The notes below the pieces were generated by a model. It ran no database searches, had not been told where the DNA came from, and saw only the letters and a program-made list of their open reading frames with translations. The position numbers were made by a program, and so were the translations under genes. Positions 1,984 to 64,000 of a stretch of DNA of 64,000 nt are shown one piece after another (position 1 is the stretch's first letter; each line of letters begins with the position of its first letter). This stretch comes from Hydrolagus colliei (taxonomy: Eukaryota): positions 4,030,001 through 4,094,000 of the forward strand of contig CM068754.1 of NCBI GenBank assembly GCA_035084275.1, read 5' to 3'.

Positions 1984-2196
1984 ATTGAACCAGGATCCCT
2001 GAGAGAGCATTCTTAAACTTCTCTTTGGCTTCCTCCATCTCTTTCTCGTGCACAACTTTTTCGTTCATCAGCCTCCGAATGTGGCTGTTTGCTGACTGGA
2101 TCATGGAGTAGAAGATGTTGGCTGATCGACGGTTCACCTCCCCCCGTTCCAGCCAGGTCAGCAGGATCTGAACAGCTTCGCCGAATTTTGAGTCGT
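1984..2196 (-). CDS. ENOX2: ENOX2-like coding exon (DDSKFGEAVQILLTWLERGEVNRRSAN...ALSGILVQ), 213 nt, phase 1-1
   Basis: Translation matches the ENOX family. Acceptor ttccgcag| (AG 2198-2197), donor T|gtgag (GT 1983-1982). The next exon was not found, so the gene continues beyond the left edge. Confidence 0.95.
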
Positions 2197-2616
2197 CTGC
2201 GGAAAGATTTGAGATCGTCAACAAGCGACACGGAACAAAGCATTTCAAACTTTGTCAAACACAAATGAGAATGTCTTCTGCTGTGTGACAGAGTGGTTCA
2301 ATCAGCCACTCAATCCAACAATGGTAACATTCCTACCTTTCATGTGGTCCTCCTTGTTCTTTGAATGCAATTTATGCTCCACATACCTAAGGATGCACTT
2401 AATGTTGTGAATTCTATAGGTTGCAGGGGCGACGAGGGAAAGGAAAGAAGAGAGTAACAGGAAAGAGGATCTTTTCCTGCAAGAGTCTACACCCTCTAAT
2501 TACTATGACAATTCCCCACCTCAATATAACATAGAACGTTTTATTCCTCCAGCTCCTTTTTACCCCAATGATAAACGATCTTTAGCATTTCTAATCTTAT
2601 AGATTGAACCGTGCAT

Positions 2617-3028
2617 CAGTATTGCTTAGTGGTAGCATTCTTGCTTCAGTCATACGGTTGTGGGTTCAAGCTCCACATTGGGACTTGTAACTCACATAGT
2701 CTAACTAACACTCCAAAGCAGTGCTGGGAGTATACTGCATTGTTGGAGGTGCCATACTGTGGATCAGACTTTAAACTGTTGTCCTATCTGCCTGTTCAGC
2801 TGGACATTAAAGATCCCATTGCCCTATTCGAGAAGAAAAAGGAGATTTATTTCTCCTAATGTGCTGGCTAGTAATCCCTGAAATAAAACTGTTCACTGTC
2901 TCCAAGGATGTTTGTGCGTCATTGATGTGCAAATTGGCTGTTATCACTACATTTTACAGTAAATCCTGTGAAGTGCTTTGGGATATCATCCCGACATGAA
3001 AAGTGCAATACCAAATGTAAGGATTATA
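2617..3028 (+). mobile_element. Old tRNA-derived Deu-domain SINE (SacSINE1/AmnSINE-like)
   Basis: Degenerate A box (gcttagtggtagc) and B box (gggttcaagctcc), Deu-like core (tgtgcaaattggctg), L2-type tail (gtgaagtgctttggga...atgaaaagtgc...aaatgtaagg). Confidence 0.65.
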
Positions 3029-3634
3029 ATCCTTATTATAGCTAATTTAAAGAGGGGATGGCAAGGCAGGAGTTCTCCCTACATTTGCATGATGTGTCTG
3101 AGCATTGATCAAAATCGAGAGAAGAAAGCAATTTCTTTCTCTCCAACTGCATGAATCAGAATGCCCTCCATTTCACCTCTGCCTTTGCCGTGGCAGATCT
3201 GCCCAATGCACTGAATTCATTTGCTTTAATTTAGATGGCAATTTTGCAGACAAAGCTGCAGCCATCTGGCCAATATCTTGCCAGATCTCTCTCTCGAGCA
3301 CATCTCATCTCCAATTAAGCTTTCTTGGCTATTAACTTTGGGATATTATTCACACTGACCTTATTAGAGCAGATAATTTGGTTTCCGAAGCTCCACTGCC
3401 TCAGACTCTGAACTGAGACACCTGGGCTGCCGAGAACCTGTTTAAAAACATCACCAGGGAGACTTGAAGGGCCAGGAGGCTTAATTCAGCCGGGAATGAC
3501 CTGTGTATCTTTTTAATAACTGATTTCACCGGCCATGGAATGGAGGCTGCTACACTGGGCATTCGGCTGCATAACATTCATGCTAGGATGTGAAAAATAA
3601 AGGGGAAAAATTAAATAGTTAACGTATGAGCTAC

Positions 3635-3868
3635 CTCGCAGCTTTTCGCCCAACACAGTACTTTCATGTTCGGAATAATGCACAATCGGTGGGGGGGAGG
3701 CTGGTCGCATTCTCTCCTCTTCCATCCGTCGTCGATGGCGTTCTTCTCTTGCGATCATTCGCTGCTTACATTCCCATTCATACAGATCATCTCGGGCTTG
3801 AGCAAAGTCAACGTGGAGGCGACCTGTGTCCTTCTTATCCGTGCTGGAGCCCAATCGGATTCTGTAGC
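3635..3868 (-). CDS. ENOX2: ENOX2-like coding exon (GYRIRLGSSTDKKDTGRLHVDFAQARDDLYEWECKQR...EKLR), 234 nt, phase 1-1
   Basis: Near-identical to vertebrate ENOX2 as recalled. Acceptor ctcaacag| (AG 3870-3869), donor G|gtag (3634-3633). Confidence 0.96.
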
Positions 3869-4455
3869 CTGTTGAGGCAACACCGCAAAAGTACAGAATG
3901 CTCAAATTGTGAGGTAGAAAAGGCGCAAACACATTTGTGGTCAGTGATCGCTGTAAATAGGGCTTTAATCTAAAAACAATTCTTGCCATCACCATTTCTT
4001 TTAACAAAAATTGTTAGCCTTAACTCTGACTTTTAAATGAATGCTTGTCCTTAAGTAGTGAATGCTGATGGCATGGCTTGGATGCATGGCTGTGCTTGTG
4101 TAAGAGTTGAATTGACATAGAGAAACTGAATTGGTAAGATCACTGAAGCACTGAACCGGATCAATTATAATTCGGATTCAGGCACCCCTCCAAACCTTCT
4201 CAAGGTTTTTAGTAATAGACAAATACTTAAACAGAGACGTGGTGAATAGAACAAACACCAAAAAAAGATGCTTGTTGATTCTTATTCCGGTTCTGTTAAT
4301 TGGCAGCTTCCCCGCTTTAAAGCTTTGTGAAAACTACCACTGACGTCACCATTCTATAAATGCAAAAATGAATGTGTCAGATAGGGAAACAAACACGTAG
4401 CTGCAGCACAAGGGTAGTCCTAAAAAACAATAATTAAGTAAACAATTCCGGTTAC

Positions 4456-4662
4456 CTGACAAGAAGATAGCTTTGCCCACCATGTATTCATCTGAATAGC
4501 GAATGTGACAGAAGTTCTTCTTGCTTTTACGAATAGCTATAATTTCACCGCATTGTCCAAAGACTTCAGTAATGATGTCTTCCGTGCCATTCTCTGGCAA
4601 GCCGCCAACAAAGACTGTTTTACATCCTGGAGGCCTATCCCGCGTGGCAGGAGGTGGAATAT
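4456..4662 (-). CDS. ENOX2: ENOX2-like coding exon, RRM N-terminal part (NIPPPATRDRPPGCKTVFVGGLPENGTE...KNFCHIRY...IFLS), 207 nt, phase 1-1
   Basis: RNP2-like VFVGGL and RNP1-like KNFCHIRY motifs. Acceptor ttatttag| (4664-4663), donor G|gtaac (4455-4454). Confidence 0.96.
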
Positions 4663-7270
4663 CTAAATAAAAGGTTAACACTTAAAAATGCTGGATATCG
4701 CATTCCCGATGACAGCAGTGCAGACCATCAGTTAAGTCACTTTCATTGATTCCATTGCTTTGTAAGACGAGGCTACACTCTACTAGCTGATGAGCAAGGA
4801 ACAGGACATCTTTAGACTAGAGAAAGTACTGTATCTTCTCCATGGAAATTGAGACTTTAGATGCTGGACTGGGTTACAAAGAGCCAAATGTCAAGTAAAC
4901 ATTCACTTCAGGAATCTGGAAACTGTGAGAAATGTTATTGAGTTATGAATCGCTACAAAACACTGACAGGAACCCAGGAAACTGTGACTCTATTTTCCAT
5001 CCACCAGATCTCTAGGGAAGCTCAGTGAAGCCATTGGTGTTTTCAGGCAACCTGAACATCTCAATAGATGTTGTCATGTAAATGCGGAACTGGGTTGTTA
5101 TAGGAAATGTTTTTGGTGACCTCACTGTGCCCCACTATAAACTAATCTTTTTAACGCATTTAATTTCTCATTTTAATGCATTTAGCTTCACACAATAGAT
5201 TGTAAAGTGGATCAACTGAATGACTAATTTTGTGGCGAAATGCAGCAACCAATTGCGCAAGTTGGGGGGTTTGTGGGGGAGTTTACTCCCTCCGGCGAAC
5301 AGTAGTACACTTTTAACCCCCAACATTTATTTTTTGGTTTATGTTTTGCGACTTTCCTGAGGAGTGAGTTGCCAAATCAGTGCCATGTTAGACACACTTT
5401 ATGCTTGCAAATAATATGCAGTAGGAAACTGATTGAGACTGCCAACTCAGTTCACATTTAACCTTTAACATAAATCAAAAAGCGTCATTCCGCTAATACA
5501 TTTGAGTGAATTTCAGGCCAAATTCCAGTAGGAACGGGCGATATTGTGCCAAAGTGAGCTCCGTCACCTGGAAATCTTTAAATACTTAATAACCAATTAC
5601 CACCACCAGGCACTTTAAGCAAATAATATTTTCCTATGTTAAGAGAGAATGTGAGAGGAGATTTTATAAGGATAACTACATCAACTCCACTTTGCAGTTA
5701 GGATTTAACCCAATTGATTACCTGTACTCCCCACACTCCATGTCAGGAGTTCCTCTATACATTAACAATCTCCCTGGGTTGTCTGGTTGATTAATACCCG
5801 GCTTCAGCTTTCTGTCAGATGTTTGAGAAGATGCCAAATACCAGTGTAATTTGGTCAAGCCATTTGCCTCAACTTTGCAGGAAAAGTATGCCGTCAATTA
5901 AGTGCTGGCGAACTGACAGCACAGCAGTAGCTGGATCATATGTTGCGAGATTCAGGCACGCAGTATTTTCAGCTTCCCTGTAGGAGCAGCTGTAGCGTTC
6001 AAACAATGCCGACAAACCAAACTCCAATCCCTTAAACACCCCTGCACATTAACATAAATGAGATAATGGTGCAAACGATATCTTTTATAGTCTCTCTTTG
6101 AAGCTGCTACTTTTTTAAAATTAATAATACAGTTTTGAAAGGAACTTGAACTTGTTACAGACCTCTGCTTTGGCTCGAAAATACATTTCCTGGATTCTGC
6201 TCCAGCCCTTTTCCTTTGTATAACTAATGAATGGTTAGTTATGTTTGGCACAAAGCACTGAAAATGTCTACGGCTTTGGAGCGCAGTGCAAAACTATGAA
6301 TTTCTTTGAATTCAAACAAGCATTTAGCAACCTGCATTTATTTTCTTCGGGTTGGCGTTGGCAAGGCAGCAGTCCCGTCCTTGTGAGGAATCACAGCATT
6401 GGGGGCATTGCATTTGTGAGGGCAGCCCAGGTCAGGCTTAGAGCAGTTCAGATGCCATGCACCTGCTGCTTACATCAGTCAGCGCTGTGGGAAATCTAGG
6501 AGAGCTGTGGGAAGCCAATTATTTCTGTAAGAAATCATCCCCTCCTCACATGTGTAGCCTCACAACACTAATAATTAGCCTACAATAAAAAAATAACATT
6601 CCACCCAAATTCAACTTTACTCTCCTCCAAGTGACAGTACAGAGAGAGAGTGGGGGGGGGGGGGGGGGAAGAGAGGAATCCATTTAACTGCGCAGTTGTC
6701 GGGTATATAAAGTTTCAAAGTAGATATCAAAGCAATCCCTCCCCCAACTTTCCAGTATATTTAATTCCTATACATATGTAATCCTTTAAGCCTCTTTGAC
6801 AAAGATGCCAAGTTTCAAATGTTGTAGACCTGATGTGTGCTCTGCGTGGTTTTAAAAAGATGGCTTGACAAAGGTGAAGTTAATCTAATGCTTCACAAGG
6901 CAAGGCCTTTTTATTTAATCAATTCACCAGTTGCATATCAAATGTGTACTCCACTCCACTCTTCCCATCTAACAGAGTATGGGAGAAACATAGGACCTGT
7001 TTAGGGGAGCGAGCTGTCAAATTCATAACTTAGATAGGTATACATCGCTTCTCTGCTTTTCAATGGTTTGAGATACATAGACCGTCAGAAGCTTTACAGA
7101 ATCAAATAGAGAATAATATAGCAATTTGATATCCCTGCACAGTTTGCTGTATGTTCATTTTTTTGATTGATTGAACTTACCATTCATACCAAATTCTGAA
7201 CTTTATAAGTGATTTACCTTGAGTTCAACGTGAAAATAAAACTGATCAGCATGTACTAACGGTGACTTAC

Positions 7271-7426
7271 TTGGGTTCGGAGGAAAGAGTGTGCAGCTTT
7301 TACAGTGGATGATTTCCTTGACCACAGGTATTTCTTGGGGGATGCCAGAAGGGACGATACCCAATCGAGGTATCATTGGATTAAGAGGTGCGATTCCAGG
7401 CATCATGCCAAGGCTCGGGTCGAACT
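7271..7426 (-). CDS. ENOX2: ENOX2-like coding exon (EFDPSLGMMPGIAPLNPMIP...VVKEIIHCKSCTLFPPNP), 156 nt, phase 1-1
   Basis: The KEIIHCKSCTLFPPNP motif is diagnostic of the ENOX family. Acceptor cttatccag| (7428-7427), donor A|gtaagt (7270-7269). Confidence 0.95.
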
Positions 7427-11844: not shown

Positions 11845-11976
11845 CTGACATGAGCGGCTGTCCAGTTATTCCCATTGGTGCCATCCCTAGATTGTTCATG
11901 GCTGTGGCCCAGGCTGTAGGATCCGACATGGACATTCCTAGTGGGCTGGAGTCCAAACCTAGGCTTCTGATACCAT
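11845..11976 (-). CDS. ENOX2: ENOX2-like coding exon (DGIRSLGLDSSPLGMSMSDPTAWATAMNNLGMAPMGITGQPLMS), 132 nt, phase 1-1
   Basis: MSDPTAWATAMNNLGMAP matches the ENOX2 N-terminus. Acceptor gtttactccag| (11978-11977), donor G|gtaac (11844-11843). The frame is open to the 5' edge of the exon. Confidence 0.93.
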
Positions 11977-15517: not shown

Positions 15518-16415
15518 TAGGGTCCGTCGATATGGAAAATTTTCCGATTAGATATATCGATGGGCTCATATCGAGATATACCGAAATATCGATATTTTCA
15601 GTTTTTTCGTACCGCGCATTCGCGGTACGAAAAAACTGAAAACCATTCCGGGTGCGCCCGCATTCGGGGCCTATCTCCTCAGGAGGTAAATATCTTTCTC
15701 TCTCTGTGTCTCTCACTCTCTCCATCTCTGTGTTTTTCTGTCTGTGTGTCTCTGTGTCTCTCTCCCTCTCTCCTCTCCCACATTCCCCCCCATCTCTCTC
15801 TATTTGTATATTATCACATCCACCCCGTCTCTCTCCCCCTCCCCACCTGCCGTCCCTCTCTTGCACCCCCCACCCCCGTCGTCTCTCTCCCCCACCACCC
15901 CCCCAGCCGTCTCTTTCTCCCTCCCCCCCCCGCCGTCTCTCTCTCCCTCCCCCCCCAGCCGTCTCTCTCACCACCCCCAGCCGTCTTTCTCCCCCCAGCT
16001 GTCTCTCTCTCTCTCCCCCCAGCCGTCTCTCTCCCCCTCTCCCCCCCCCAGCCGTCTATCTCCCTCTCCCCCCAGCCGTCTCTCTCCCCCTCCCCCCAGC
16101 TGTCTCTCTCCCCCTCCCCCCCAGCCGTCTCTCTACCCCTCACCCCCCCACCCCCAGCCGTCTCTCTCACCCCACAGCCCTTGTGTACTTGTATATTGTA
16201 TTCGAGGATTGTGAATACAATATGGCGGCTTTGCACCTCGGTCTGTGCATTGTGTATAGAGATGAGCATTCTGGGTATTGTAGTTCAGTGTGCTCGCATC
16301 CCGATTTTTTACCTCGATATATCGTTTTTCGATATATTTTAAATGTTTATATCGGCATATCGATATGAAAATTATATCGGGTTTTATCGATATATCGATA
16401 TATCGCCGGACCCTA
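15518..16415 (+). mobile_element. Non-autonomous hAT element (copy 1) with internal C-rich minisatellite
   Basis: TIRs TAGGGTCCGTCGATAT / ATATCGCCGGACCCTA. 8-bp TSD GACTTGAT (15510-15517, 16416-16423). Subterminal CGATAT repeats and internal (CCCCCAGCCGTCTCTCT)n. Confidence 0.92.
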
Positions 16416-36131: not shown

Positions 36132-36771
36132 AACAACAACAACAACAACTTAAACTTATAAAGCACCTTTCACGTCGGGAGGACGTCCCAAGGCGCTGCA
36201 CAGGAGGCGTGTGACCCGAGCTGGGAGGGGAGTGTTCGGGAAGGGGTGAAGGAGGTCGAAATGTTTGGTGGGGAACAAAAGGCACGGTCGAAGAGGAAAG
36301 TCTTCAAACCGGCCTTGAAAGAGGAAAGGGAAGAAACAAGGTGGAGGGATTGGTGGATGGAATTCCACAGGGTGGGAGCGGAGAAACTGAAGGCCCGGCC
36401 TCCGATGGTGGGGCGGTTCGGGCGGGGGGCTTGGAGCAGGCCAAGTCCTGCTGAACGGAGGGTCTGGGTGGGCTTATAGGGGGAAAGTAAATCGGTTAAG
36501 TAGGGCGGGGCAAGGCCGTGTAAGGCCTTGAAGGTGAGGACGAGGATCTTGAACTCGATCCTCTGGAGGATGGGGAGCCAGTGGAGATGGGCGAGGGTGG
36601 GGGTTATGTGGTCGCGGAGGCAGGTGCGGGATAATACACGGGCTGCAGAGTTTTGTAATGACCTGCAGCCTGTGAATGGAGGAACTGGGGAGGCCGACGA
36701 GGAGAGAGTTTCCGTAGTCCAGCCGTGAGGTGATGTATGTGTGCACGAGTGTTTCGGCAGCGTGGGGGGTG
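36132..36771 (-). mobile_element. Young L2 LINE 3' portion
   Basis: [21 protein letters not shown]...[27 protein letters not shown], 3' stem-loop and (TTG)n tail. Confidence 0.95.
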
Positions 36772-36884
36772 AACAATCAAACAATTCTCCATTTGTCAGA
36801 CCACTTTAACCTATTAATGCGCAAATACAAAGCAACATTATATCTGAAGAGAACTGGTGACCATCCCAGTTTCATTCCCGCAAT

Positions 36885-37410
36885 ACTATCCCACACCCGC
36901 CTCCGCGACCACATAACCCCCACCCTCGCCCGTCTCCACTGGCTCCCCACCCTCCAGAGGATCGAGTTTAAGATCCTCGTCCTCACCTACAAGGCCTTAC
37001 ACGGCCTTACCCCATCCTACTTAACCGATCTACTCTCCCCCTACACGCCCACCCGGACCCTCCGTTCAACAGGACTTGGCCTGCTCCAAGCCCCCCGCCC
37101 GAACCGCCCCACCATCGGAGGCCGGGCCTTCAGTTTCTCCGCTCCCACCCTATGGAATGCCATCCCTTAATCCCTCCGTTTCGTCTCTTCCCTTTCCTCT
37201 TTCAAGGCCGGTTTGAAGACTTTCCTCTTCGATCGTGCCTTTTGTTCCACCACGAACTCTTTTACCTCCCCTTCGTCTTTCACCCCTTCCCAAACACTCC
37301 CCTCCCAGCTCGGGTCACACGCCTCCTGTTCAGCGCCTTGGGACGTCCTCCCGACGTGAAAGGCGCTCTATAAATGTAAATTGTTGTTGTTGTTGTTGTT
37401 AATTGTTGTT
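36885..37410 (+). mobile_element. Young L2 LINE 3' portion, inverted relative to its neighbour
   Basis: [21 protein letters not shown]...PTLWNAIP, stem-loop gcgccttgggacgtcctcccgacgtgaaaggcgc and (TTG)n tail. Confidence 0.95.
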
Positions 37411-37434
37411 ATTTACCGATACGACCGGCCTTAC

Positions 37435-37578
37435 CTGCAGCAATGTTATTCCGTTTCCTTTTCTTGTTTGATTCGTTGTTGCCTTCAATAGAACATTCAG
37501 TTATCAGTGGGCCATTTGTGTTTCCAAACTGCAGTGGTTCATTGTTGTTTGCAGGATCAAAGCCCAATTGGTTAAGTC
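37435..37578 (-). CDS. ENOX2: Probable upstream ENOX2 exon, 144 nt, phase 1-1 (GLNQLGFDPANNNEPLQFGNTNGPLITECSIEGNNESNKKRKRNNIAA)
   Basis: Strong acceptor ctctttctgccactttatttttgcag| and donor GCAG|gtaagg. Non-repetitive and stop-free in the frame that joins exon 11845-11976 (…IAA-D-GIRS, recalling ENOX1 AAAA-D-GLGS). Coding versus UTR status is not proven. Confidence 0.8.
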
Positions 37579-38277
37579 CTGCAAAAATAAAGTGGCAGAA
37601 AGAGAACAATCAACATTTGGTAAAATGGAGGAAATTTGTAAAGAACTGAGGGAACTAAAAATGTATACCCGTCAACTTTGTGTAAATGCAGCAGTCCACA
37701 GTGGGCATTACTTGGAGCTTGAGAAAAACAAATTCAATGCTTTTCTGGCAACCTCCAAAGCCAGATAAATTAAGATTTCTTTTTAGCCTGATAGAACAGA
37801 TTGCATTCATGCAATTTTAACACAAGAATATCCGCAATTTTCATTACAGCAGTTTTCGAACATTCAATACACCTCCGAAGACATCACTGCAGCCTCAGTG
37901 CAACTGAAACGATACAATGCTCTGCTCAAAATGTGACCAAATCACAGCACAAATAAAACTGGGCTATGAAACGGCAAATGTAAACAACTGCAGACCAAAT
38001 CAGTACAATATCTATCAGTCCCTCCCCTCCAACAATGGGGGCAGTAAGCTGGTCTCCTCGCTGGTAGAATTCAGGGTTGTAGTGTGTGGAGCCAGGGTTT
38101 GGCTGTGGAGGAAAGTGTTGACACAGAACCCGGGCATTGGGAGAAATGCTGTCAAGGAGCGTGGCTGACGGTGGGAATCGGTCCCACCAGAACTGCTGTG
38201 AGGCTAGCAACCAGCGTCTCCCCTAGTGTATGCCTGCATTTCACCAGGGAGGCATTCCTCAGTTTGAGAATCTCGGT

Positions 38278-38598
38278 TTGGAGCCCTGTAGCTCAGTGGT
38301 TAGAGCACTTGCCTTACAAGCGTGAGACTTGTGTTCAAATCAAGGCAGGACGAAACCTTGGGCAAGTTTCTTTACTCAACACGCCTAATAATAATCCATC
38401 AACAAAAACCAATACAGTAATAAAAAAAAGTGGCCATTTCAATCCATTGTTTGTGGGACACTGCTGTGTGCACTTGGCTGCCACATTTCGCCCACAAATA
38501 TACAGTCAATTCACTTTACAGTAAACTCTGTGAAGCGCTTTGAGACGTCTAGAAGACGTGGAAAGCGCTATATCAAATGCAAGCATTATTATATTATC
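38278..38598 (+). mobile_element. Deu-domain tRNA-SINE
   Basis: Full head (tagctcagtggttagagc...gttcaaatc), core and tail. Confidence 0.9.
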
Positions 38599-41343: not shown

Positions 41344-42577
41344 TAGGGAACGGCGATATGGGAATTTCCCGATATGGATATATCGGTTGGCTCATATCGA
41401 CATATACCGATCTATCGATATTTTCGGGTTTTTCGTACCGCACATGCGCCCGCGCGCATTCGGGGCCTATCTTCTCAGGAGGTAAATATCTTTCTCTCTC
41501 TGTGTCTCTCACTCTCTCCATGTCTCTCACTCTCTCCATCTCTGTGTTTTTCTGTCTGTGTGTCTGTGTGTCTCTCTCCTTCTCTCCTCTCTCACATCCC
41601 CCCCCATCTCTATCTATCTGTATATTATCACATCCACCCCGTCTCTCTCCCCCCCCCCCCCCCCCCGCCCCTCTCTCGCAACCCCCACCCCCGTCGTCTC
41701 TCTCCACCCCCCCAGCCGTCTCTCTACCCCTCAACACCCCCCCAGCCGACTCTCTCCTCCTCAACCCCCCCCCCCCAGCCGTCTCTCTCCCCCTCACCCC
41801 CCCCCCCAGCCGTCTCTCTCCCCCTCTCCCCCCCCCAGCCGTCTCTTTCTCCCTCCCCCCCCAGCCGTCTCTCTCACACCCCCAGCCGTCTTTCTCCCCC
41901 CAGCTGTCTCTCTCCCCCTCCCCCCAGCCGTCTCTCTCTCCCTCTCCTCCCCGCCCCCAGCCGTCTCTCTCTCCCTCTCCTCCCCCCCCCCAGCCGTCTC
42001 TCTCCCCCTCTCCTCCCCCCCCCAGCCGTCTCTCTCCCCCTCTCCACCCCCCCAGCCGTCTCTCTACCCCTCAACCCCCCCCCCAGCCGTCTCTCTCCCC
42101 CTTACCCCCGCCCCAGCCGTCTCTCTCCCCCTCTCCCCCCCCCAGCCGCCTCTCTCCCCCTCACCCCCCCCCCCAGCCTTCTCTCTCCTCCTCTCCTCCC
42201 CCCAGCCGTCTATCTCCCCCTCACCCCCCACCCAGCAGTCTCTCTCACCCTCACCCCCCCCCCCCCCCCAGCCGTCTGTCTCCCCCTCACCCCCCACCCC
42301 CAGTCGTCTCTCCCCCCCCCACCCCACCAGCCCTTGCATACCTGTATATTGTATTCGAGGACTGTGAATACAATATGGCGGCTTTGCACCTCGGTCTGTG
42401 CATTGTGTATAGAGATGAGCATTCTGGGTATTGGAGTTCAGTGTGCTTGCATCCCGATTTTTTACCTTGATATATCGTTTTTTCGATATATCGATAGTTT
42501 TTAAATGTCTATATCGGCATATCGATATGAAAATTATATCGGGTTTTAGCGATATATCAATATATCGCCGTTCCCTA
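41344..42577 (+). mobile_element. Non-autonomous hAT element (copy 2) with expanded minisatellite
   Basis: Perfect TIRs TAGGGAACGGCGATAT / ATATCGCCGTTCCCTA. 8-bp TSD CCTCCAAC (41336-41343, 42578-42585). Confidence 0.93.
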
Positions 42578-45660: not shown

Positions 45661-48157
45661 CCACACATTCCACCGTGCTCCTTGACCCAACCGTCGTGGC
45701 GGTGGCGTGGACCTCATCTCAAAGTCATCCCTCGCCCTATCCCCCTATTCCTCCGGCTCCTTCCTCTCTTTCAAACAACTCACCCTCTCTCACTCCTCCC
45801 ACAATTCTTTCAAAATCCGATTAGTTTATCGCCCCCCCAAACCCTCCCCCACTTTCATTTCAGACTTTTCTTCACTTTTAACCTCCCTTTGTGCCTCCTC
45901 TGATCGCCTTATTATTCTTGGCGATTTCAACCTCCATTTCACCCCCTTCTGCCCCATTTCCTCTGAATTTTCCTCTTTACTTTCGTCTTTCAACTTCTCC
46001 CTTCATATTAACACTGCCACCCACACTCACGGCCATCCTCTCGATCTAGTGATCACCCGAGGCCTCAACGTCCCTGGCGTCACCATCACAGACAAGGCCA
46101 TTTCCGACCATTTTTTCATTTCCTGCAACACCTCTATCCCTCCCCCCTCCACTTCCAAACCCACCACCATCTTCTACCGGCCCTGGAAGAAGATTCCCCC
46201 TCAAACTTTCACCTCTGCCCTAGAAACCTCCGACCTCTTCCCACAATGGCATTATTTTTGTACCGACCCATCCTCCGCCTCCACCGCCCTCCACAACACC
46301 CTCTCCACTACCCTTGACACCCTGGCCCCCCTTACCTCCCAAACTGTCTCCCATTCCCGATCATCACCGTGGTACACAACTCACCTCCGTTCCCTCAAAA
46401 GCCAAGTGAGAGCAGTTGAACGCACCTGGCTCAAATCTGGCCTCACGGTCCACCGGCAAATCTGGCTGGACCGCATCAAATTTTACCGCTCCGCCCTAGC
46501 CACCGCCAAATCAGCCTTCTACTCCAGGATAATCCTGGAAGCGAAGGACTACCACCGCCTTCTCTTCGCCACCACCAACCAGCTCCTCCGCCCCCCCCGC
46601 CTCACCTCGCAGATCCTCTCCTCAAACGTTCGTTGTGAGGAGATGCTGGATTTCCTCGAGTCCAAAATTGAGAAAATCCGCTCTGCGGTTTCCTCCCCCC
46701 ACCACTCCTCCACCTCCGCGCCCTCATCAGCTACCTCAACACCTACTCACCCCCCATTTCACACTTTCAACCCCACCACCCCGCTTTCAATCACAAAAAC
46801 AATTACCTCCATGAAACCCACCACATGCTCATTGGACCCCATCCCCACCCCCCTCCTCCGCACCCAGCTCCATTTGTTAGCCCCGCTCATTTCTGACACC
46901 ATTAACCTTTCCCTCTCCTCAGGAACCATCCCTACCTCCCTTAAAACAGCCACCATCACCCCTATCCTGAAGAAACCCTCCCTTGATGCGTCGCAACCAT
47001 CAAGTTATCGACCCATCTCCAACCTCCCGTTTCTATCCAAGGTCCTTGAAAGAGTGGTTGCCTCCCAGCTCCGCTCTTTCCTTTCAAATCACTCACTTAT
47101 TGAACCCCTCCAATCAGGTTTCCGACCTATCCACAGCACAGAAACTGCCCTGGTTAAGGTCACAAATGACATCCTAACCGCCTGTGACCAGGGCTCCCTC
47201 TGCCTCCTCGTCCTCCTTGACCTGTCTGCTGCGTTCGACACAGTCGATCACACCATCCTCCTTCAACGTCTTTCCTCCCACCTCAACCTTCAAGGCACAG
47301 TCCTTGACTGGTTCCACTCTTATTTGACCCACCGTTTACATTTTGTTTCTTCCAATGGTTTTTCTTCAAACCCCCGCACAGTTTCCCACGGCGTCCCTCA
47401 GGGCTCTGTCCTCGGTCCCCTCCTTTTCACCCTTTACACGCTCCCTCTGGGCGACGTCATCCGCAGACATGGAGTAAATTTCCACATGTATGCGGATGAC
47501 ACCCAGTTGTACCTTTCTGCCTCATCCCTCAACCCCCAGACGATCGATGTTCTGACAGCATGTCTGTCCGACATCGAGTTGTGGACGAGGGACAACTTTT
47601 TCCAATTGAACGTGAATAAGACCGAGGCCCTCCTGATTGGCTCAAGCCAGTGCCTCCGCACATCGGGCGCTGCCAGCCTCAATATCCAAGGTTGCACTCT
47701 CCACCTCACAAAGCCAATCAGGAACCTCGGCATCATGTTCGATCAAAAACTTTCCTTCCTCCCCCACATCCGCGCCTTGACCGGCACCGCCTATTTCCAT
47801 CTGCGCAACATTGCCAGGCTCCGTAATTATCTTACCCCCCGCGCTGCCGAAACACTCGTGCATGCATACATCACCTCACGGCTGGACTACGGAAATTCTC
47901 TCCTAGTCGGCCTCCCCTGTTCCTCCATTCATAGGCTGCAGGCCATCCAAAACTCTGCAGCCCGTGTACTATCCCGCACCCGCCTCCGCGACCACATAAC
48001 CCCCACCCTCGCCCGTCTCCACTGGCTCCCCATCCTCCAGAGGATCGAGTTCAAGATCCTCGTCCTCACCTACAAGGCCTTACATGGCCTTGCCCCATCC
48101 TACTTAACCGATCTACTCTCCCCCTAAACGCCCACCCGGAACCTCCGTTCAACAGGA
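45661..48157 (+). mobile_element. Young L2 LINE ORF2 (partial APE endonuclease plus reverse transcriptase), 5'-truncated, 3' rearranged
   Basis: 806-aa uninterrupted ORF 45707-48127 with APE motifs (ILGDFN, HPLDLV, ISDH) and RT motifs ([38 protein letters not shown]). It ends at a premature TAA where other copies have TAC or TAT. Confidence 0.96.
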
Positions 48158-52392: not shown

Positions 52393-53541
52393 TAGCGAAC
52401 GGCGATATGGGAATTTTCCGGATATGGATATATCGGTTGGCTCATATCGAGATATACCGAAATACCAATATTTTCTGTTGTTTCGTATTGCGCATGCGCA
52501 CGCGCATCGGAGTGCGCGCGCATTCCGGGTGCGCGCGCATTCGGGGCCTATCTTCTCAGGAGGTAAATATCTTTCTCTCTCTGTGTCTCTCACTCTCTCC
52601 ATCTCTATGTTTTTCTGTCTGTGTCTCTCTATGTCTCTCTCCTCTCTCACATCCCCCCCCATCTCTATCTATCTGTATATTATCACATCCACCCCGTCTC
52701 TCCACCCCCCCCCCCCGCAGTCCTTCTCTCGCACCCCCCACCCCCATCGTCTCTCTCCCCCACCACCCCCCCAGCCGTCTCTTTCTCCCTGCCCCCCCCC
52801 CGCCGTCTCTCTCTCCCTCCCCCCCCCAGCCGTCTCTCTCCCTCTCCCCCCAGCCGTCTCTCTCCCCCGCTCCTCCCCCCCCCGCCGTCTCTCTCCCCCT
52901 CTCCTCCCCCCCCCGCTGTCTCTCTCCCCCTCCCTCCAGCCGTCTCTCTCCCCCTCCCCCCAGCCGTCTCTCTCCCCCTCTCCTCCCCACCCCGCCGTCT
53001 CTCTCTCCCTCCCCCCCCAGCCGTCTCTCTCCCCCTCCCCCCAGCCGTCTCTCTCCCCCTCTCCTCCCACCGCCCCCCAGCCGTCTCTCTCCCCCTCTCC
53101 CCCCCCCAGCCATCTATCTCCCCCTCCCCCCAGCTGTCTGTCTCCCCCTCTCCTCCTCCCCCCAGCCGTCTCTCTCCCCCTCTCCTCCCCCCCCCAGCCG
53201 TCTCTCCCCCTCTCCTCCCCCCCCAAGCCGTCTCTCTCCCCCTCCCCCCAGCCGTCTCTCTCCCCCTCACCTCCCCCACCCACAGCCGTCTCTCTCCCCC
53301 CACCCCTTGCATACCTGTATATTGTATTCGAGGACTATGAATACAAGATGGCGGCTTTGCACCTCGGTCTGTGCATTGTGTATAGAGATGAGCATTCTGA
53401 ATCTTGTAGTTGATTGTGCTCGCATCCCGATTTTTTACCTCGACATATCGTTTTTCGATATTTTTAAAATGTCTATATCGGCATATCGATATGAAAATCA
53501 TATCGGGTTTTAGCGATATACCGATATATCGCCGTTCCCTA
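52393..53541 (+). mobile_element. Non-autonomous hAT element (copy 3) with minisatellite
   Basis: TIRs TAGCGAACGGCGATAT / ATATCGCCGTTCCCTA. 8-bp TSD ATATATAC (52385-52392, 53542-53549). Inserted in the tail of a minus-strand SINE fragment (53550-53646). Confidence 0.93.
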
Positions 53542-62421: not shown

Positions 62422-64000
62422 ACAACAAGAACAACAAATTACATTTATAGAGCGCCTTTCACGTCGGGAGGACGTCCTAAGGCGCTGCACAGGAGGCGTG
62501 TGACCCGAGCTGAGAGGGGAGTGTTTGGGAAGGGGTGAGACACGAAGGGGAGGTTGAAAAATTCGGGGTGGAACAAAAGGCACGGTCGAAGAGGAAAGTC
62601 TTCAAACCGGCCTTGAAAGAGGAAAGGGAAGAAACGAGATGGAGGGATTGAGGGATGGCATTCCATAAAATGGGAGCGGAGAAACTGAAGGCCCGGCCTC
62701 CGATGGTGGGGCGGTTCGGGCGGGGGGCTTGGAGCAGGCCAAGTCCTGTTGAACGGAGGTCCGGGTGGGCGTGTAGGGGGAAAGTAGATTGGTTAAATAG
62801 GGCGGGGCAAGGCCGTGTAAGGCCTTGAAGGTGAGGACGAGGATCTTGAATTCGATCCTCTGGAGGATGGGGAGCCAATGGAGACGGGCGAGGGTGGGGG
62901 TTATATGGTCGCGGAGGCGGGTGCGGGATAATACATGGGCTGCAGAGTTTTGGATGACCTGCAGCCTGTGAATGGAGGAACAGGGGAGGCCGACGAGGAG
63001 AGAGTTTCCGTAGTCCAGCCTCGAGGTGATGTACGTGTGCACGAGTGTTTCGGCAGTGCGGGGGGGTAAGATAGTTGCGGAGCCTGGCAATGTTGCGCAG
63101 GTGGAAATAAACGGTGCCGGTCAAGGCACGGATGTGGGGGAGGAAGGAGAGTTTTTGATCGAACATGATGCCGAGGTTCCTGACTGGCTTTGTGAGGTGG
63201 AGAGTACAGCCTTGGATGTTGAGGCTGGCAGCGCCCGATGTGCGGAGGCGCTGGCTTGAGCCAATCAGAAGGGCCTCGGTCTTACTCACGTTCAATTGCA
63301 GGAAGTTGTCCCTCGTCCAGGACTCGATGTCGGACAGACATGCTGTCAGAACATCGATGGTCTGGGGGTTGAGGGATGAGGCAGAAAGGTACAGCTGGGT
63401 GTCGTCCGCATACATGTGGAAATTTACCCCATGTTTGCGGATGACATCGCCCAGAGGGAGTGTGTAAAGGGTGAAAAGGAGGGGGCCTCAAACAGAGCCC
63501 TGAGGGACGCCGTGAGAAACTGTGCGGGGGTTTGAAGAAAAACCGTTGGAAGAAACAAAGTGTAAACGGAGGGTCAGGTAGGAATGGAACCATTCAAGGA
63601 CTGTGCCTTGAAGGTTGAGGTGGGAGGAAAGACGTTGAAGGAGGATGGTGTGATCGACTGTGTCGAACGCAGCAGACAGGTCAAGGAGGACGAGGAGGCA
63701 GAGGGAGCCCTGGTCACAGGTGGTTAGGATGTCATTTGTAACCTTAACCAGGGCAGTTTCTGTGCTGTGAATTGGGCGGAAACCTGATTGGAGGGGTTCA
63801 AGGAGTGGGTGAGTTGAAAGGAAAGAGCGGAGCTGGGAGGCAACCACTCTTTCAAGGACCTTGGATAAAAACGGGAGGTTGGAGATGGGTCGATAGCTTG
63901 ATGGTTGCGACGCATCAAGGGAGGGTTTCTTCAGGATAGGGGTGATGGTGGCTGTTTTAAGGGAGGTAGGGACGGTGCCTGAGGAGAGGGAAAGGTTGAT
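62422..64000 (-). mobile_element. Young L2 LINE, RT region through tail; runs off the window
   Basis: Same family as 45661-48157 ([17 protein letters not shown]). Nonsense codon at 63488-63490, a frameshift in the run near 63060, and an intact 3' stem-loop with (TTG)n tail. Confidence 0.96.

Follow-up and report, generated by a model that had tools for sequence, protein, structure and literature searches.

An upstream coding exon of ENOX2 in Hydrolagus colliei with a candidate partner-binding motif and a predicted nuclear localisation signal

The ENOX2 locus and its upstream exon

The window analysed here is a stretch of 64,000 nucleotides of the Hydrolagus colliei genome (contig CM068754.1, positions 4,030,001 to 4,094,000). 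It holds a 144-nt exon and five other exons of ENOX2, all on the minus strand. The exons and the elements of the 144-nt exon are as follows:

37578-37435, minus: ENOX2 coding exon for an N-terminal extension, 144 nt, phase 1-1
37526..37558, minus: DPxxNNEPLQF block, candidate short linear motif common to invertebrate Anw/ENOX proteins (from homologue comparison)
37504..37542, minus: 12-codon out-of-frame ORF from the first out-of-frame ATG (from the sequence)
37451..37465, minus: KKRKR basic cluster, predicted monopartite nuclear localisation signal (NLS), K[KR]x[KR] in homologues
11845..11976, minus: following ENOX2 exon, 132 nt, where the short form starts at the Mets of MSMSDPTAW (from the sequence)
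7426-7271, minus: further ENOX2 exon (joined open frame)
4662-4456, minus: further ENOX2 exon, RRM (joined open frame)
3868-3635, minus: further ENOX2 exon (joined open frame)
2196-1984, minus: further ENOX2 exon (joined open frame)

The four downstream exons (1984..7426) joined into 269 open codons. The 269-aa product was 97% identical to Callorhinchus milii ENOX2, whereas identity to Callorhinchus ENOX1 was 75%, and the genome holds a separate ENOX1 locus on contig C6, one exon of which is 95% identical to Callorhinchus ENOX1. Because the core is nearer to the named ENOX2 than to ENOX1, the gene in the window was assigned to ENOX2. Only RRM_1 (PF00076) and the ENOX1-like domain (PF23267) scored above the Pfam cut-off in the 97%-identical ENOX2 protein, and the fold matches listed were RRM-type RNA-binding chains. 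Pfam, fold and RRM matches agree on the RRM and ENOX1-like helical domain that mark the Angel wing (Anw)/ENOX family of splicing regulators.

The 144-nt exon is bounded by a pyrimidine-rich AG acceptor and a G/GTAAGG donor, and its phase-1 frame is open throughout. It was single-copy in a search of the whole genome assembly, and a protein search of the whole genome with the exon peptide returned no second copy. The five other ENOX2 exons of the window are also multiples of three in phase 1. An intron of 25,458 nt separates the exon from the MSDPTAW exon (11976-11845), and 62 codons of the spliced frame precede the first in-frame Met. The preliminary description of this segment as unique, stop-free, flanked by AG/GT sites, phase 1-1 like the other exons, 25 kb upstream of the MSDPTAW exon and open for at least 62 codons before the first Met was accurate on each of these points. 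Its term "Met-free" applies to the reading frame but not to the exon as a whole, which contains three out-of-frame ATGs at 37542, 37515 and 37496. Judged from its sequence, the 12-codon ORF that begins at the first of these would hinder scanning to the downstream MSMSD start.

As a control for chance, AG..GTRAG segments of phase 1-1 were counted on the minus strand of the window. Four of the 14 segments found were open, and three of these four were ENOX2 exons; K[KR]x[KR] occurred among the four only in the 144-nt exon. High-copy repeats flank the exon at 36500-37414 (about 20 nt from the donor, which adjoins the AAC-rich end of the repeat) and at 38242-38500 (660 nt from the acceptor).

Translation start, conservation and existing annotation

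Two exons with an AUG in frame with the 144-nt exon were located further upstream:

G000:C21:4122838-4122817, minus: MFLVQYT AUG exon with a phase-1 GT donor, 55 kb upstream, outside the window
G000:C21:4129441-4129348, minus: MEQLIFDYRC.. AUG exon, outside the window and 62 kb upstream, ending at a phase-1 GT donor

Joined singly to the 144-nt exon, either of them keeps the frame open and places 76 or 69 residues ahead of MSMSD; joined together before it, they lead to a stop. The MEQLIFDYRC.. exon has an in-frame stop immediately upstream of its ATG, and 12 of 14 residues match the RefSeq N-terminus of Callorhinchus. Of the 118 homologous models, 45 open with an N-terminus of the form MFL[VL]QY[TSR]G; they come from animals as far apart as sharks, mice and monkeys. 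One such model (P0100), an unnamed protein of 689 aa, is encoded on a contig of 2,373 bases, which must be a spliced transcript. We are highly confident both that the segment is a true ENOX2 coding exon and that upstream AUGs are available to it.

In the MFLVQYT exon (G000:C21:4122817-4122875), a candidate acceptor lies 37 nt upstream of the ATG. Inclusion behind the MEQL exon would shift the frame and bring a stop within the 144-nt exon, so that the MFLVQYT exon may act as a poison exon; alternatively, it may be a first exon. As an AUG route, it would mean that the mammalian UUG start is not the sole way to the long protein.

The preliminary description had proposed a non-AUG extension and noted that mammalian ENOX2 had been listed as a candidate for one. 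The listing was confirmed: Ivanov 2011 (PMC3105428) gives a 60-residue ENOX2 extension that is UUG-started in mammals and AUG-started in other vertebrates. For Hydrolagus colliei, however, an extension that begins at a non-AUG codon and is missing from annotation is highly improbable. The exon offers no in-frame Met, it has an in-frame TTG at 37567, and UUG initiation has been proposed for mammals (PMC3105428). Against this, the two in-frame AUG exons with GT donors make a non-AUG start unneeded in this genome, the position of the proposed human UUG codon is CTT here, the same source gives AUG initiation in non-mammals (PMC3105428), and RefSeq models already include the exon. Non-AUG initiation was rejected for this genome on account of the in-frame AUG exons, and the gene thereby differs from the Ivanov class, which is marked by the absence of an in-frame upstream AUG. 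In mammalian transcripts (P0056, P0060, P0093 and the human mRNA), the frame is open for 9 codons above Ivanov's UUG, up to a second in-frame TTG.

The exon peptide is 94% identical to residues 15-62 of Callorhinchus ENOX2. It was present in 118 of 120 homologues, a presence that follows by construction from the use of the exon as search query. In a by-eye codon comparison with the human mRNA, 32 of 47 codons keep their residue, 16 of them through a different codon (16 synonymous, 15 non-synonymous and 16 identical codons). Between human and Hydrolagus, all 11 residues of the DPxxNNEPLQF block are kept, with 5 synonymous changes, as are all five of KKRKR, with three. Both the homologue alignment and the by-eye codon comparison show the coding-type conservation expected of an extension of the Ivanov class.

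RNA was represented by three runs of one sample labelled as another organism. Four reads fell on the 144-nt exon and none in the flanking intron. Three of the four break at the exon edges (37435, 37435 and 37579, positions taken from depth bins) and are unlike the genome beyond the break. For the single read that breaks at 37579, the MEQL exon is a better fit than the MFLVQYT exon. Splicing of the exon is supported by the orthologous models and these few reads.

RefSeq/UniRef models of Callorhinchus (XP_042196545), sharks, zebrafish, mouse and human already contain the exon as coding sequence, and such models are spread across jawed vertebrates. Long ENOX2 models with the same exon include XP_005173205 (Danio), XP_017362991 (Cebus) and XP_011529547 (human), and the Callorhinchus model opens with the same MEQLIFDY exon. 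These models are predicted and assign the extension no function. The earlier claim of a conserved N-terminal extension that annotation overlooks is thus upheld for the extension, which is coding and conserved to human, but not for the oversight. The exon and peptide are the ones reported in Ivanov 2011, which describes the extension as shared by human and fish and as initiated at AUG in non-mammals (PMC3105428). Unlike that account, the present analysis locates two AUG exons, and KKRKR, the ancient motif, the MFLVQYT exon and the ENOX1 remnant described below are all absent from the section of the paper examined. Searches of Pfam and the ESM Atlas gave, respectively, no family match for the exon peptide and no usable match for the sequence submitted.

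Conserved elements of the N-terminal arm and their paralogue history

The N-terminal arm is predicted to be disordered. In the fold predicted from the deeper alignment, residues 1-138 had low confidence, with pLDDT of about 40-45 around KKRKR, and most of the core was above 90. Only arm residues 6, 28-31, 56 and 68-70 lie outside segments with pLDDT under 50, which makes the model uninformative on docking. A fold predicted with vertebrate rows only was of poor quality (pTM 0.22).

Within the exon, conservation reaches deepest in the DPxxNNEPLQF block, which the preliminary description had overlooked. Out of 150 representatives, 122 had a match to the RRM region and 77 of these had at least 100 residues before the RRM; 65 of the 77 N-termini were less than 75% identical in that region and formed the non-vertebrate-like set. 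The pattern N[DN]xP[LP][EDQH]F occurred before the RRM in 16 of the 65 (shuffle mean 0.004, maximum 1 in 2,000). Since this pattern was widened after the sequences had been seen, a profile built from vertebrates only is the cleaner test: an HMM from vertebrate exons alone matched 8/65 N-termini and 0/65 C-terminal remainders at E<=0.01, with a best E of 1.7e-9. In the MAFFT alignment, the vertebrate and invertebrate blocks fall in the same columns.

Carriers of the motif include echinoderm, hemichordate, mollusc and arthropod homologues, among them those of Saccoglossus, Anneissia, Diadema, Acanthaster, Elysia, Centruroides, Ladona, Nilaparvata, Anthophora, Lutzomyia and Anopheles. It is absent from 49 of the 65 non-vertebrate-like proteins, including those of Drosophila serrata, Uloborus and Pollicipes, and a second Drosophila protein also lacks it. 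The block thus stands as a conserved island in a predicted-disordered and otherwise unalignable region. This pattern is that of a short linear binding motif, and we consider it quite probable, from comparison of homologues, that the block recruits a binding partner.

A CtBP-type PxDLS identity was considered for the motif and dropped, as the motif has an invariant F and a literature search revealed no link; the PxDLS class requires L or M at the corresponding position. A second conserved word, PM[DE]L[EQ], was observed in dipteran-type Anw N-termini (P0302, P0315, P0323, P0327, P0335, P0356 and P0413). It is present also in Drosophila, where DPxxNNEPLQF is missing.

The second element of the exon is KKRKR (codons at 37465-37451, minus strand). 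The classical monopartite NLS consensus K(K/R)x(K/R) is a cargo signal for importin-alpha. KKRKR matches this consensus twice and sits in a region predicted to be disordered and accessible, which makes it a candidate signal of this class. K[KR]x[KR] was found on the exon in all 118 homologues, as KKRKR in 97, NKRKR in 16, KKRRR in 4 and KKRRW in 1.

An internal K[KR]x[KR] motif that follows an acidic EEEMEMS linker has a different distribution. It was present in 38 of 45 hand-picked ENOX1-named proteins, a set that is biased because its search query contained the motif, and in none of the ENOX2 proteins (0/119 and 0/22). Among invertebrate-type proteins, 15 of the 22 with the anchor carry it (shuffle mean 1.9, maximum 7), two or three of these matches lying within coiled coil; 9 more proteins lack the anchor. 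Chimaera, bony-fish and tetrapod ENOX1 keep the internal motif, but six elasmobranch ENOX1 proteins (P0175-P0179 and P0187) are without it.

Neither the motif block nor a basic cluster was detected in the 27 ENOX1 N-termini locatable by anchor, and the 11 named invertebrates that were checked have no KKRKR-type word at the N-terminus. However, 12 of the 65 non-vertebrate-like proteins have some K[KR]x[KR] in this region (shuffles 2.4), so that a basic patch at the N-terminus may have existed before ENOX2. The distribution of the two basic motifs makes KKRKR the likely replacement NLS of ENOX2, and probably its main one.

ENOX1 retains a decayed copy of the exon:

G000:C6:71128047-71127903: decayed ENOX1 copy of the exon, 145 nt, AG/GT, directly upstream of the matching exon of ENOX1

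The remnant was located by position, and its alignment to the ENOX2 exon covers the whole exon, acceptor and donor included, with a local score of 88 (mean 45, SD 9, maximum 84 over 1,818 windows). It is one base longer than the ENOX2 exon, PLQF and KKRKR are gone, and an ATG of its own lies close to the 3′ end. In a UniRef model of Callorhinchus the remnant is read in frame, and the alignment of this model to the ENOX2 arm outscores all of 5,000 shuffles; the extra base in the present genome may therefore be recent or an assembly slip. Profile scans revealed no intact motif within 400 kb upstream of ENOX1.

Because ENOX1 holds this decayed copy, we infer that the exon predates the duplication of ENOX1 and ENOX2. 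In a tree built without the window's own sequence, Uloborus and Pollicipes, ENOX1 and ENOX2 fall on either side of a branch with support 92/90, and invertebrates lie outside.

Proposed role of the extension

The reading we favour, and consider reasonably likely, is that an AUG-started long ENOX2 is normal in Hydrolagus colliei, that KKRKR replaces a lost internal NLS, and that the protein, as a nuclear splicing regulator, recruits a partner through the DPxxNNEPLQF motif. The exon, its splice sites, its frame and the two in-frame AUG exons are read directly in the DNA, and splicing is supported as described above. Since MSMSD is preceded by an upstream AUG and by three out-of-frame AUGs, a protein with a 69- or 76-residue extension would be the main product here. 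By comparison, both the motif and an internal basic cluster occur in invertebrate homologues; ENOX2 has the motif without the internal cluster, and ENOX1 in most cases has the internal cluster, without the motif and with a decayed exon copy. ENOX2 may accordingly be pictured as having shifted its import signal onto the exon after the vertebrate duplication, in which case exon inclusion would set both nuclear import and partner binding of an Angel wing-class splicing regulator. The exon would add a predicted-disordered arm with the ancient DPxxN[ND]xPL[QE]F motif, which probably binds the partner, and KKRKR as the likely main import signal. This offers a simple account of the divergence of ENOX1 and ENOX2, and the comparison names two short elements relevant to localisation and partner binding.

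We regard as tentative a further-reaching version, in which the exon carries a bilaterian-wide ancestral partner-binding motif of the Anw/ENOX splicing regulators together with the only working NLS of ENOX2, and the paralogues have split the toolkit. ENOX2 would have kept the motif and relocated the NLS to the exon; ENOX1 would have kept the internal NLS while the exon decayed, and the choice of first exon and start would switch mammalian ENOX2. If this were true, start choice (MFLVQYT AUG, UUG or downstream AUG) would toggle between a nuclear splicing regulator and a shortened form that is poorly imported, and the tNOX studies done over decades on short clones would have dealt with a protein lacking its front end.

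The nuclear, RNA-binding role suggested in the preliminary description is supported for the family by Zhang 2025 (PMC12464824), where fly Anw is nuclear and human and zebrafish ENOX2 direct splicing in fly cells. Both the extension itself and the nuclear role of the family are thus already published. The regulators Anw, ENOX1 and ENOX2 belong to the same family and share the RRM-plus-helical core with the gene described here. The comparison differs in that the human clone starts at the downstream Met, according to its primer, and excludes the exon; the Drosophila proteins compared lack the motif. The pre-RRM region was called poorly conserved and left undeleted, and the term "NLS" occurs nowhere in the running text of that paper (PMC12464824). 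The absence of the motif from Drosophila may explain this view of the region. The short human ENOX2 tested for splicing activity in 2025 has neither KKRKR nor DPxxNNEPLQF. We found no published account of the motif, the basic-motif swap, the ENOX1 remnant or the conserved AUG exon, although one may stand in subscription journals, figures or supplements.

It is also conceivable, but in our judgement rather unlikely, that the extension is translated and KKRKR is redundant, nuclear entry being provided by other signals or by a partner and the exon being kept mainly for DPxxNNEPLQF or for nuclear-body tuning. The short human ENOX2 still directed minigene splicing in fly cells, so the exon is not strictly required under overexpression, and none of eight domain disruptions of Anw abolished nuclear localisation (PMC12464824). 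The six elasmobranch ENOX1 proteins without the internal motif and a C-terminal KRWK, which also fits K[KR]x[KR], point the same way. Against redundancy, the basic cluster is kept in 118/118 homologues while its flanks drift, and the internal cluster, which invertebrate homologues and most ENOX1 carry, occurs in 0/119 ENOX2 proteins.

The remaining alternative, that ENOX2 is a cell-surface NADH oxidase that loses the extension through processing and plays no part in the nucleus, is very improbable. In its favour are the annotation used traditionally and a western product of 34 kDa, both cited by Ivanov (PMC3105428), and the surface model is repeated in PMC13100119, which concerns a different ENOX exon. 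Against it, only RRM_1 and the ENOX1-like domain exceed the Pfam cut-off, the listed fold matches are RRM-type RNA-binding chains, Anw is nuclear, and Zhang 2025 questions the surface evidence (PMC12464824). It is disputed whether ENOX2 (tNOX) is a surface oxidase of cancer cells or acts in the nucleus as a splicing factor (PMC12464824).

Elsewhere in the window, a non-LTR retrotransposon-type frame of 813 open codons with endonuclease and reverse transcriptase domains lies at 45686-48124 on the plus strand, and a 336-codon reverse transcriptase piece of the same type at 62480-63487 on the minus strand. C-rich minisatellite arrays with a common unit were observed at 15825-16180, 41697-42332 and 52694-53306.
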